The position numbers and the translations under genes are program-made. Of a stretch of 64,000 nucleotides of DNA, positions 15,845-20,818 are shown piece after piece. How positions within the stretch are numbered: the first letter of the stretch is position 1; every line of letters begins with the position of its first letter. Origin of the DNA: an uncultured Bacilli bacterium (lineage in GTDB: Bacteria; Bacillota_I; Bacilli_A; RFN20; CAG-826); contig CALVUF010000001.1 in assembly GCA_944363525.1 (NCBI GenBank), positions 116,497-180,496 on the forward strand, in the 5' to 3' direction. The notes under the pieces were generated by a model. That model made no database searches and was not told the origin of the DNA. It worked only from the letters and a program-made list of their open reading frames with translations.

Positions 15845-16711
15845 ATGTTCGGTTTGCATCGTTTGTTGGCTTCTTTGTCTGTATTGGTAGGACTGAGTGC
15901 TTGCCTTAGTTGTGGATGGGACTCGACTTCTATTGGCTCGAAGCTAGATCGTCATGATCTTTCAAGTTACCACCCGGAAATTGAAGGCTTCACTTATCTT
16001 GATGGTTTCGACGAACGCCAGTACTCTTCGGATAATAAGTCGGGATATATCTATTATGATTTAGACTTGTATTGGGCGCAGTTTACTCAAAAATCAAAGC
16101 TGATAATCGCTCATGTTACGGCTGATTTTACCCCCGGTTATGTTGCTAATTTAAACGAAAAAACTTTTGACTCTGGATACAAACTAACGTCGGGATACAT
16201 CCATATTGGCGCATCCAAGATAGTTCGAAGTACATATTGGTCCTCTGATGTCTATTACTTGGCGGGTTGGCCTTACTCAAGCAAAGAATCTTATGCCGTT
16301 TCTTCTACTACCGGTTTGGAAATTACTTTTGGCAAAGAAAGCTCCAAATCCCATAATCTTAATGGTGCGGTGCTATCTAAATCGACCAAGAAGAACTCAC
16401 TTACTTTAAAAATTGAGAAAACCGCCTCTGCTAGCGGAGACAATCCAAAATTATCAAGCCAACAGGCCCCAAATAATCAATTGGAGCATCAGCTTAGTTA
16501 TGAATACAAAGTTGCTGGCACTAATACGCTAAACCAAGATTGCTATTTGCTTTTCGAGTACGTCGATAATGCGACTGGGCCGTTTAATCCCGCTTCTTTC
16601 AAAATCGACGTTGATATAAAAATGAATACAACAAAAAAGACGCTCGGAATTTTTGCTTCCAAAAAATCAGTTAGCGCCAATTGCGCTTTTGAATACGGGA
16701 TCAACGATTAG
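15845..16711 (+). CDS. lipoprotein, divergent paralogue P2 of the secreted beta-rich family
   Basis: Signal peptide with lipobox LSAC (MFGLHRLLASLSVLVGLSAC); SD GGAGGG. Shares GY.YYD.DLY, F.PGY, WPYSS, the polar hairpin, DNPKLS.Q, VAG and LFEY.DN blocks with P1/P3. Confidence 0.8.
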   Translation: MFGLHRLLASLSVLVGLSACLSCGWDSTSIGSKLDRHDLSSYHPEIEGFTYLDGFDERQYSSDNKSGYIYYDLDLYWAQFTQKSKLIIAHVTADFTPGYVANLNEKTFDSGYKLTSGYIHIGASKIVRSTYWSSDVYYLAGWPYSSKESYAVSSTTGLEITFGKESSKSHNLNGAVLSKSTKKNSLTLKIEKTASASGDNPKLSSQQAPNNQLEHQLSYEYKVAGTNTLNQDCYLLFEYVDNATGPFNPASFKIDVDIKMNTTKKTLGIFASKKSVSANCAFEYGIND

Positions 16712-16716
16712 TCGTT

Positions 16717-18732: not shown

Positions 18733-18733
18733 T

Positions 18734-20818
18734 ATGCGAGTTATCGGCCTTTCCAAATCCTACGGCAGTCGCGTTTTATTTGAGGATTTTTGCTTACAGG
18801 CAGATCGAGGGTTGATCGAGGTCAAAGGCCCGTCTGGATGTGGGAAGTCTACCTTGCTCAAAATACTTACGGGGTATGAACGAGCCGATTCCGGGACCGT
18901 TGAACTGGGCTCCTATGCTTATTGCGGCCAAGATAACACCATCTACCCTGAGCTTTCTTTGCGGAAGAACATGCAGAAACTCCTTGGCGGCGATCGCACG
19001 GGGTCAACTGCCGTCTACATCGAAAAGCTTTCGTTTGCCCGTTTTCTCGATTCGCCGATCATCGAATTAAGCGGTGGGGAGAGAAAGAAAGCGGAAATCA
19101 TCTTCGCGCTTTCGCAAACCGCCGAGGCCTATTTCCTCGATGAGCCTTTCGCTTCCTTAGACGAGCAAAGCCAGGTGGCGCTCGCCGATATCCTTTTCGA
19201 TCTTTCCCGGCACCGTTTGGTTGTCTGCGTCAACCACGAGATGGCCTTGCCGAATCGGCAGCCTGATTGTCGACTGGTGTTTGAAGGCAATGGGGCGATT
19301 AGGAGCGAAGGTCAGCCGATTGTCGACGGAAAGGCCCCCTCGCTCCCCATAGAAAAGCGCCCCTTGGCAAGGGCGGCCATGTTTTACCGATTCACCCATC
19401 AGCGATTACGTGAATTTCTAAAGTTTATTTTGGGCGTTTCCTCTATCGTCTTGCTGACTTTTGGCGCGGCATTTACCAACACGAAATCCCCGAATCAAAT
19501 CAACGCCGCCGCTCTCGCGGCCGACCCTTTCTCCGTTCATCCGATAAGCCTTGGCAAAGGAACGGGCGAAGGTGGCTTGCTGGAGGATCCGGTAGAGTTG
19601 GCTCAAATCATCAAAGACGAGGCTTGCGTTTACTTCGAACTCCCTTATTTGGATGTCTATTCGATTTTGCCTTCGACTTCTTCGGCTTTGCTTTACGTCG
19701 ATGAGTCCGTTTCTTTTGATCTAAACCAGGTGGGGATAAACGGGAGGGATTACATAATTCCGGTCGAGAGACTGACCGTCGATAAGCGGGATTCCGCCCT
19801 CACTGATTTCTCTTGCCAGGCGATTGCCGAATGGTTCATAGCCGATAATCACTCCGAAAATTTGCTTTTGCTTCCGCGCGCCTTCGGATTGGATATTCTC
19901 GAGCTCGGCTGCGGTGCATTGCTCTTCGATGGAATAGAGGCGCCCGTAACTTTGCCGTCTTTGGACGTGTTTCGCCCCGGGGTTATCGGGGTTGTCGAAT
20001 CAAGTGAGGCCAAAGCCCCGATTTCTGGTCAAGAGGGCTTTGATTTGCGGTTGAATCACGATGATTTCTCCCCGATTGCCTCGCTTTCTGACACCGGGGT
20101 GCGCTTAACGGTCAATGGGTCTTCTGAGTTACCTGTTTCGATGTCTTTCGATGCCTATCTAGTGGCTTTGTTTTCATCAAACTGGGGGCAGGAGCACTTC
20201 CTATTTGACCGAGCGGTTTTCAATCGGCTTTCGGCTTTTGGCGAATTGAGGGTCGGAGGCGTCATTCAAGACGCATCGGCTGGTTGGACCTATCAGGTTT
20301 TGCTTTTTGCCTTTGGTGGAATCTGCCTTCTCGCTTATTTGATCATGGCCCTTCTATCCGGATATTCGCGAAATTCATCCGCGCTTATCTCGCGTGAGGT
20401 TTTAGGCCATCTAGGATTGGATAAGAAACGTTTATCCGTTGGATTATTTGGCACCTCGCTCCTCGCCTATTTGCCTGTAGTTGCGTTGTCGGCCATCTTG
20501 TATCCGGCGGTTTTGATTCCGATGGCGAATTATCAGAATATGGTTGTGCTATACGGGGAAGATCGCCCCGATGGTTATTACTATTATTCGGAGCAGCCGG
20601 CCAATCCATTTTACGATTCCATTCAATCGCCGGTTCGGTTCGTTTCCTTCGAATGGGTATATTTATTCGTGGTTCTGGCTTTCGTCGCGATAATGGTCGC
20701 TGAATGGCTTGCTTTGGCGAAATCGATTTCAACGCGGCGCGATCCGTTCCGTTTCAATCGCTTTGGCGGTGAACAGGATCGGGGGTTAGATCAGAAGAAA
20801 AACGGAGAGGACGATTAG
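18734..20818 (+). CDS. MacB-type ABC transporter, fused ATPase + FtsX-like permease (2 of 2)
   Basis: ATG 18734 (MRVIGLSKSYG) lies 1 nt after the upstream stop. Walker A GPSGCGKST, signature LSGGERKK, Walker B FLDEPFASLD, H-loop VNHE. Topology is TM1 + large external domain + 3 TM. Confidence 0.85.
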   Translation: MRVIGLSKSYGSRVLFEDFCLQADRGLIEVKGPSGCGKSTLLKILTGYERADSGTVELGSYAYCGQDNTIYPELSLRKNMQKLLGGDRTGSTAVYIEKLSFARFLDSPIIELSGGERKKAEIIFALSQTAEAYFLDEPFASLDEQSQVALADILFDLSRHRLVVCVNHEMALPNRQPDCRLVFEGNGAIRSEGQPIVDGKAPSLPIEKRPLARAAMFYRFTHQRLREFLKFILGVSSIVLLTFGAAFTNTKSPNQINAAALAADPFSVHPISLGKGTGEGGLLEDPVELAQIIKDEACVYFELPYLDVYSILPSTSSALLYVDESVSFDLNQVGINGRDYIIPVERLTVDKRDSALTDFSCQAIAEWFIADNHSENLLLLPRAFGLDILELGCGALLFDGIEAPVTLPSLDVFRPGVIGVVESSEAKAPISGQEGFDLRLNHDDFSPIASLSDTGVRLTVNGSSELPVSMSFDAYLVALFSSNWGQEHFLFDRAVFNRLSAFGELRVGGVIQDASAGWTYQVLLFAFGGICLLAYLIMALLSGYSRNSSALISREVLGHLGLDKKRLSVGLFGTSLLAYLPVVALSAILYPAVLIPMANYQNMVVLYGEDRPDGYYYYSEQPANPFYDSIQSPVRFVSFEWVYLFVVLAFVAIMVAEWLALAKSISTRRDPFRFNRFGGEQDRGLDQKKNGEDD

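Follow-up and report, generated by a model that had tools for sequence, protein, structure and literature searches.

A predicted haemolysin-fold protein family with two apparently interchangeable membrane partners, one of them a predicted MacB-architecture ABC pair, in an uncultured gut Bacillota

We describe three adjacent genes, P2, ABC1 and ABC2, in a 64,000-nt stretch of DNA (the window) from an uncultured Bacilli bacterium. P2 is predicted to carry a lipid anchor and to belong to a small family, here called the P family, whose members are all-beta, ~290 aa long and exported by Sec, and ABC1 and ABC2 are predicted to be paralogous ATP-binding cassette (ABC) half-transporters of MacB architecture (type VII). 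In related genomes, what lies downstream of most P genes is either ABC genes of this kind or a gene for a small protein with two transmembrane helices (2-TM), and, on the gene orders compared here, this swap between a passive 2-TM protein and an ATP-driven type VII machine fits self-protection of the producing cell best. We tentatively favor the reading that ABC1 and ABC2 are the dedicated membrane partner of P2: working by mechanotransmission, the pair would dislodge or release P2 and so protect the membrane of the producer.

P genes and their two kinds of membrane partner

The genes and signals that make up the P2 locus are listed below; positions are window coordinates unless they carry a contig (C) or locus (L) prefix.

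15845-16711, forward strand: P2, encoding a 288-aa lipoprotein precursor, by translation
16717-18732, forward strand: ABC1 ("a-type"), 671 aa
18734-20818, forward strand: ABC2 ("b-type"), 694 aa
16277-16438, forward strand: Gly/Ser/Thr-rich segment in the center of P2 (residues 145-198), a candidate pre-stem hairpin, with a predicted local distance difference test score (pLDDT) below 50 in the AlphaFold2 (AF2) model
15797-15825, forward strand: promoter-like site TTTACG-17-TAAAAT ahead of P2, a consensus match
15834-15839, forward strand: Shine-Dalgarno sequence GGAGGG ahead of P2, a consensus match

The initial annotation had described the three genes as a tandem series, with gaps of 5 and 1 nt, and the open reading frames bear this out: the TAG stop of P2 (16709-16711) precedes an ATG at 16717, and the TGA stop of ABC1 (18730-18732) precedes an ATG at 18734. 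A longer ABC2 reading frame, starting at a TTG at 18665, finds no support in the N-termini of relatives. Tight a/b spacing is kept in relatives, with a 4-nt overlap in 8 of 11 a/b pairs, and a sequence scan of the P2-ABC1-ABC2 stretch revealed no convincing intergenic terminator. Promoter-like matches upstream of P2 are no commoner than in shuffled sequence and are to be read as consensus matches only. We infer that P2, ABC1 and ABC2 form one operon, carried on a ~6-kb variable insert in the interval between rpsO and pnp.

Four paralogues of P2 are encoded in the same genome, namely P1 and P3 in the window and two further genes at C1:63 kb and C3:138 kb. The two in the window each belong to a cassette in which the place of the ABC pair is taken by a 2-TM protein:

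12128-13322, reverse strand: cassette 1, P1 (12411-13322; 32% identical to P2) and, downstream of it, a small 2-TM protein whose tail is rich in Lys (12128-12394/12427)
22552-23706, reverse strand: cassette 3, P3 (22813-23706) and, downstream of it, a basic-tailed 2-TM protein of 80 aa (22552-22794); orthologues in a congener, G015, are 95% identical

This arrangement extends well beyond the window. Of the 401 genomes sampled from the order, 57 have a P gene, and the flanks of 40 further hits, combined with other P loci, gave 55 P genes for comparison. Directly downstream of 25 of these, at -58 to +34 nt, lie one or two genes that fuse a nucleotide-binding domain (NBD) to an FtsX-type permease, and directly downstream of 23 others lies a 60-110-aa 2-TM protein with a Lys/Arg-rich tail; 7 have neither partner in this position. 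The initial annotation's remark that the ABC pair sits where the 2-TM partner sits in other P cassettes is therefore borne out by these counts. Adjacency of P and ABC genes is not due to chance: if a genome has eight ABC genes of this type, far fewer than one would be expected to adjoin P at random. The annotation had named as grounds for refutation that homologous ABC pairs elsewhere never adjoin P genes, and this does not hold, as the P-ABC-ABC arrangement is present at nine or more further loci within the order. The P-a-b order recurs in genomes G033, G023, G093, G152, G187, G146, G204 and G194, and other arrangements are a-P-b (G129), b-P-a (G117), a lone P-a, P-a-P-a-b arrays and versions of ~1000 aa; orthologues of ABC2 follow a-type genes in at least 10 loci. 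The tandem P-a-P-a-b arrays are at L041 and L046 (genomes G194 and G146), and in G146 ABC partners accompany at least four of the five P loci.

When the 55 P proteins are placed on a tree, partner types group together, with 9 changes against 18.2 in shuffles (none of 500 shuffles was as low), and well-supported branches nevertheless require at least 3-6 partner switches. The two partner types thus look interchangeable, as judged from gene order and phylogeny. Relatives of P in other orders of the class (L076-L081; GC content 24-39%) are followed directly by a 2-TM gene, 65-78 aa in length, at five of the six loci, and because these distant relatives carry the 2-TM gene, we regard P plus 2-TM as the older module and the ABC genes as a replacement. 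These relatives are ~380-410 aa long, with an N-terminal extension of ~130 aa. The partners also occur in other settings. Approximately 44 strong a-type genes were recorded in the order, of which ~25 abut P, ~14 do not and ~4 lie at contig ends; those without P include the host's own pair on C6, which stands behind a GH43 gene. In genome G277, the 2-TM partner gene is duplicated in tandem downstream of P (L052 7854-8114 and 8167-8427). In the region L003 2775-6009 (C1:60.8-64 kb) of the host genome, the fifth P gene has no downstream partner and is divergent from an operon whose products are a GntR regulator, an ABC ATPase and a membrane protein of 352 aa, so that its neighbor is an ABC of a different type. 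Compared with holin families, the 2-TM partners matched no named PHROG or Pfam family, which neither favors nor excludes a holin-like role.

Predicted structures and the host envelope

The N-terminus of P2, MFGLHRLLASLSVLVGLSAC, has a positively charged n-region, a hydrophobic core and a lipobox, L-S-A-C, with the lipidation cysteine at position 20; the signal peptide comprises residues 1-19, and signal peptidase II is encoded in the genome. The canonical LSAC lipobox that the initial annotation had reported can therefore be read directly in the translation. As a mark of the P family it does not stand, in that it is a feature of P2 and most ABC-linked P proteins are without it. Sec-type leaders are present in most P proteins, and P1 and P3, in their longer reading frames, as well as the G015 orthologues, keep basic n-regions.

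P2 has no match in Pfam, NCBIfam or, by sequence, in the PDB; nine family members had no Pfam match at E-values up to 10, Leukocidin (PF07968) included; and profiles built from 9 and 96 P sequences found no toxin in the PDB. A word-based protein search with P2 returned only P2 itself and one weak relative, and a profile search of the genome contigs with a small P alignment returned three loci. An exhaustive profile search among 1.84 billion representatives delimited the family as 249 clusters at 50% identity, which split into a ~290-aa class and a ~390-aa class, and a scan of JGI metagenomes for P gave no match.

The AF2 model of P2, built from an eight-sequence alignment, is all-beta, with a core pLDDT of 70-90 and a mean of 63. 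Searched against the PDB with Foldseek, its top 41 matches are all chains of alpha-haemolysin, gamma-haemolysin, LukGH, LukE or PVL (E 1.6e-6 to 9e-3, probability at least 0.98, full-length alignments), and the hits that follow, such as arrestin and lysenin, are not significant. The TM-scores to the haemolysins are low (0.27-0.41), in a model from a shallow alignment, and it is because of these scores that we call an alpha-haemolysin/leukocidin-like fold for P2 probable and go no further. The central segment of P2 has counterparts family-wide: 57-63 residues long, 40-48% Gly, Ser or Thr, and resembling a pre-stem in having an N-G turn at the center and an alternating pattern on either side. 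A test of beta-hydrophobic moment (amphipathicity) in this putative stem was not significant against shuffles, and the segment is compatible with a stem in the predicted fold. In size (~290 aa), predicted all-beta fold, full-length Foldseek matches and Sec signal peptide, P proteins thus resemble the alpha-haemolysin/leukocidin toxins, from which they differ in the lack of detectable sequence similarity, in the lipid anchor of P2 and in their genetic context: 48 of the 55 P genes have a membrane partner gene, whereas the known members of that toxin family are not known to have one.

Both ABC proteins have a complete NBD, as had been claimed, since all five motifs can be read in the alignment. 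In ABC1 these are GPNGVGKST (Walker A), TPQD (Q-loop), LSAGEKQR (signature), IVLLDE (Walker B) and SAAHD (H-loop), and in ABC2 GPSGCGKST, CGQD, LSGGERKK, AYFLDE and VNHE; the corresponding E-values against PF00005 are 5e-24 and 6e-17. ABC1 consists of an NBD (1-205), a first transmembrane helix (~249-267), an outside domain of ~276 aa (~268-543) and three further helices (~544-650), with hydropathy placing the four helices at ~249, 544, 586 and 632 and the AF2 model at 234-274, 537-572, 578-619 and 631-656. The same layout in ABC2 comprises an NBD (1-195), a first helix (~228-246), an outside domain of ~275 aa (~247-521) and three helices (~522-662), the hydropathy peaks lying at ~228, 522, 571 and 644 in the numbering of the 694-aa protein, with a long loop between the third and fourth.

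The initial annotation had assigned both proteins to the MacB/FtsX type. Topology agrees in both, and for ABC1 the model and profiles agree as well; for ABC2 the assignment has only topology and weak profile similarity behind it. The AF2 model of ABC1 has a pLDDT of 55, with a good NBD and a poor outside domain (pLDDT 20-70), and its six best Foldseek matches are full-length MacB chains (5lil, 5lj7, 5lj6 and 5gko), with 5nik at rank 8. These alignments cover ~740 columns (E 7e-21 to 5e-15; TM-scores ~0.3, for the ABC1 model only) and outrank matches to NBD-only proteins such as YbbA, FtsE, BceA and LolD. Against FtsX (PF02687), ABC1 scores 18.1 bits, below the cut-off of 25.5, and ABC2 has no match, and larger P-linked ABC relatives exceed the cut-off (L049, 43.6 bits; L053, 34.2 bits). 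By hhalign, the C-terminus of a-type proteins matches these FtsX-positive relatives with 96.7% probability (E 3.5e-10), and that of b-type proteins matches the a-type at 71% and the FtsX-positive relatives at 40%; the similarity between a-type and b-type transmembrane domains was weak with small alignments and improved with the census sequences. ABC2 would thus be a more divergent FtsX-like paralogue, assigned by topology and by its fixed position after a-type genes. A MacB periplasmic-core domain could not be recognized in either protein, as PF12704 (MacB_PCD) has no match in ABC1, ABC2 or the rest of the genome. Comparing the outside and transmembrane parts with the PDB by sequence gave nothing meaningful, a word-based search with ABC1 returned mostly generic NBDs, and a search with the alignment of the ABC transmembrane domains returned five proteins only.

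Tandem conservation suggests that ABC1 and ABC2 form a heterodimer, which would work without a membrane-fusion adaptor. MacB of the MacAB-TolC systems of E. coli and Aggregatibacter, the best match of the ABC1 model, shares with them an N-terminal NBD, a first transmembrane helix, a large outside domain and three further helices, and mechanotransmission is presumed for ABC1 and ABC2 as well. MacB differs in being a homodimer, where two tandem paralogous genes here presumably yield a heterodimer, and in working with the MacA adaptor and TolC, neither of which was found in this monoderm host. The outside domains of ABC1 and ABC2 have no MacB_PCD match, and the operon is headed by a predicted haemolysin-fold protein. 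Another known type is the lactococcin 972-type ABC (TIGR03608), which is the top NCBIfam NBD match of ABC2 and the third of ABC1, and which likewise has a large outside domain and an adjacent gene for a beta-sandwich bacteriocin. Lactococcin 972 itself is a 66-aa lipid II binder. ABC1 scores 97.2 bits and ABC2 73 bits, both far below the cut-off of 254.85, and the two proteins are therefore not members of that family. The genome (1.57 Mb) encodes eight fused NBD-FtsX genes in all, at C2:135321, C3:103989, C3:106012, C3:135678, C6:109948 and C6:111960 in addition to ABC1 and ABC2. A second tandem pair (677 and 927 aa) lies at C3:104-109 kb.

The envelope of the host bears on any role for these proteins. 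The assembly spans 1.57 Mb in 9 contigs (52% GC, 95% complete), and searches of it for Omp85, OEP/TolC, LpxC, secretin and the HlyD adaptor (HlyD_D23) found none, in searches of a kind that were positive in control genomes. No membrane-fusion adaptor or exit duct was seen in any of the cassettes examined, and the eight genes of MacB architecture coexist in this genome with no detectable MacB_PCD, HlyD adaptor or TolC. The polynucleotide phosphorylase (PNPase) encoded in the window belongs to a 90%-identity cluster named Bacillota / Candidatus Alloenteromonas. We therefore treat the host as a monoderm, genome-reduced gut Bacillota; a Gram-negative (RF32 alphaproteobacterial) host was considered and rejected, given that Omp85, OEP, LpxC and secretin were not found and given the PNPase cluster. 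With no outer membrane and with Sec-type leaders in most P proteins, no special export route is needed for P.

Possible roles of the ABC pair

In the mechanism that we favor, ATP hydrolysis in both NBDs would be transmitted through the transmembrane helices to the ~275-aa outside domains, which would bind P2 on the outer surface of the membrane of the producer itself. Bound P2 would be kept from oligomerizing or inserting in that membrane, or would be pulled out and let go; for a lipid-anchored P2, protection and release may be one and the same act. Self-protection, which the initial annotation had suggested beside export, gains its rationale from the haemolysin-like predicted fold of P. The usual neighbors of genes for antibacterial pore formers are genes for membrane-located immunity proteins (PMC9558359), and MacB-family ABC proteins shield Gram-positive producers from their own membrane-active toxin, as with YknXYZ and SDP or with AS-48EFGH (PMC5985334). 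YknXYZ of Bacillus and AS-48EFGH of Enterococcus are Gram-positive MacB-family ABC systems tied to protection from the cell's own membrane-active toxin or to its export (PMC5985334), but they have a separate ATPase and permease, an adaptor (YknX) and small peptide toxins. The system described here has a fused NBD and lacks an adaptor, and its partner is a toxin-like beta-sandwich protein of ~30 kDa. In addition to the partner swap, the orphan ABC genes, the duplicated 2-TM genes, the multiple P paralogues and the presence or absence of cassettes in sister genomes appear to fit self-protection best, and the ~14 a-type genes without P resemble orphan immunity genes.

Several points weigh against this reading. 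To our knowledge, none of the haemolysin-family toxins described so far has an immunity gene. Orphan ABC pairs could equally mean that the pump has another substrate. The pore-forming activity of P is deduced from a model with a mean pLDDT of 63, eight aligned sequences and TM-scores of 0.27-0.41, and P has no sequence-level similarity to toxins, even by the 96-sequence profile. The heterodimer is deduced from tandem conservation only, the proposed binding of P by the outside domains of ABC1 and ABC2, which are poorly modeled, is pure inference on our part, and the single operon is deduced from gene order and spacing. A broader proposal, which we consider possible and more speculative than self-protection by itself, is that the P family comprises the first haemolysin-fold pore formers to act as self-targeting-capable, probably interbacterial, weapons in need of cognate immunity. 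Immunity would then come in two interchangeable forms, either a 2-TM protein or an adaptor-less, heterodimeric MacB-type ABC that evicts a toxin of ~30 kDa by mechanical force from the membrane of the producer.

The alternative that survives best, and that we nonetheless regard as unlikely, is release rather than protection: ABC1 and ABC2 would act at the outer leaflet, where they would extract P2 by its lipid anchor and other P proteins by their uncleaved signal anchor, and P would be shed or passed to the wall or medium. P2 has a canonical lipobox, P stands first in a tightly coupled operon, the a/b pairing resembles that of LolC and LolE, and the extraction of lipoproteins is the task of LolCDE, a heteromeric type VII ABC (PMC5985334). 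The likeness to LolCDE lies in the heteromeric FtsX-type permease pair and in a lipoprotein client at the outer leaflet, but LolCDE has a separate LolD ATPase and needs LolA, LolB and an outer membrane, whereas the NBDs here are fused and outer-membrane markers were not found (LolA and LolB were not searched for). A monoderm has no outer membrane or LolA-type acceptor. Furthermore, most of the ABC-linked P proteins have no lipobox and are not lipoproteins, orphan ABC pairs exist without a P gene, and a 2-TM protein of 60-110 aa, which substitutes for the ABC in half of the cassettes, would be incapable of ATP-driven extraction.

More doubtful is the view that P is not a toxin at all but a surface beta-sandwich, such as a binding, adhesion or receptor module of an ABC acting on another substrate, for instance an antimicrobial peptide or a lipid. 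The low TM-scores and the absence of sequence support for the fold leave room for it, as do the broad use of the architecture in this genome, with its eight fused NBD-FtsX genes, and the fact that about one third of a-type genes have no P gene. However, all 41 significant structural matches are pore formers, the Gly/Ser/Thr-rich central segment lies where the stem would be expected, and the conserved pairs of P and 2-TM genes without an ABC show an independent role for P, one for which a small membrane partner is required.

We consider it improbable that the ABC pair works as a regulator, switching the activity of P2 (by a prepore-to-pore change or by exposure on target contact) without transport, as FtsEX acts on EnvC or PcsB. 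Type VII ABC proteins that control an extracytoplasmic effector are known (PMC5985334), and the close structural matches of ABC1 include NBDs of FtsE and FtsEX, but nothing specific favors such a switch, and the swap with a passive 2-TM protein speaks against an activation step that requires energy. Finally, tripartite export of P across an outer membrane, the reading implied by the initial annotation's analogy with MacAB-TolC and the enterotoxin STII, draws on the MacB architecture of ABC1 and can be dismissed as highly improbable, since the analogy presumes an outer membrane, and neither its markers (Omp85, OEP/TolC, LpxC, secretin) nor the HlyD adaptor was found in a 95%-complete genome whose PNPase belongs to a Bacillota / Ca. 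Alloenteromonas cluster.

Modules that combine a toxin with ABC-mediated immunity or export are of a known kind, and so are MacB-type pumps. What appears to be new is the client, predicted to be a haemolysin-fold protein of ~30 kDa that is lipidated in the case of P2; the pump, which is adaptor-less, NBD-fused and apparently heterodimeric, with a non-canonical outside domain; and the natural interchange of the ABC pair with a 2-TM partner. Our literature search found no described system that pairs a haemolysin-fold protein with a MacB/FtsX partner; one match on "macB" was discarded, as the name is used there for an unrelated baseplate gene. MacB-type ABC proteins are thought to work mechanically outside the membrane, and few of their protein clients are known (STII, lipoproteins, and EnvC or PcsB). 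The gene neighborhoods compared here point to one client in particular, a predicted haemolysin-fold protein, and since a 2-TM protein naturally takes the place of the pump in other cassettes, these cassettes can serve as a built-in control in studies of what the pump does. If P forms pores, the family of small beta-barrel toxins would extend into abundant, uncultured, genome-reduced gut Bacillota, and P and its partners would be the first toxin-partner pairs for the haemolysin fold. The variation of the cassettes between sister genomes suggests an effect on competition in the gut.

The insertion between rpsO and pnp

The genes rpsO and pnp are usually adjacent. In this genome they are 8.5 kb apart, and the insertion and its left boundary are marked by two features:

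15326-21311: ~6.0-kb segment containing P2-ABC1-ABC2 and a 0.5-kb tail, missing at this site in the congener G015
15299-15316, forward strand: strong intrinsic terminator of rpsO, with a GC-rich 7-bp stem and then a T-run, just left of the insertion boundary

When the corresponding locus of G015 (L023) was compared with the window by blastn, L023 12100 corresponded to 15325 and L023 12115 to 21312. The G015 flanks are 88-96% identical at the nucleotide level, and synteny stops at 15325; G015 retains P1, P3 and a small lipoprotein gene. The sequence TTCTTTTAC is present at both junctions of the insert (15299-15325 and 21280-21311), and the right end of the insert holds a degenerate copy of the rpsO terminator. 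The shared junction sequence and decayed terminator may have arisen by duplication during insertion, or they may be a scar of recombination. Over 14-18 kb the GC content is 0.44-0.49 (0.44 in P2 and ABC1), compared with 0.52 for the genome.

The GC-rich, 0.5-kb tail (20871-21378) is 86% identical to L023 15384-15877, a segment elsewhere in the G015 island that precedes a paralogue of the small lipoprotein gene; the match points to rearrangement by recombination between repeated island segments. To the left of the insert, at 13525-14892, is an AAA_14/DUF4143 ATPase gene with ~17 paralogues in the 1.57-Mb genome, several of which start ~300 nt from contig ends (C6:309, C7:259 and C3:308). This gene behaves as a multi-copy, possibly mobile, assembly-breaking element.

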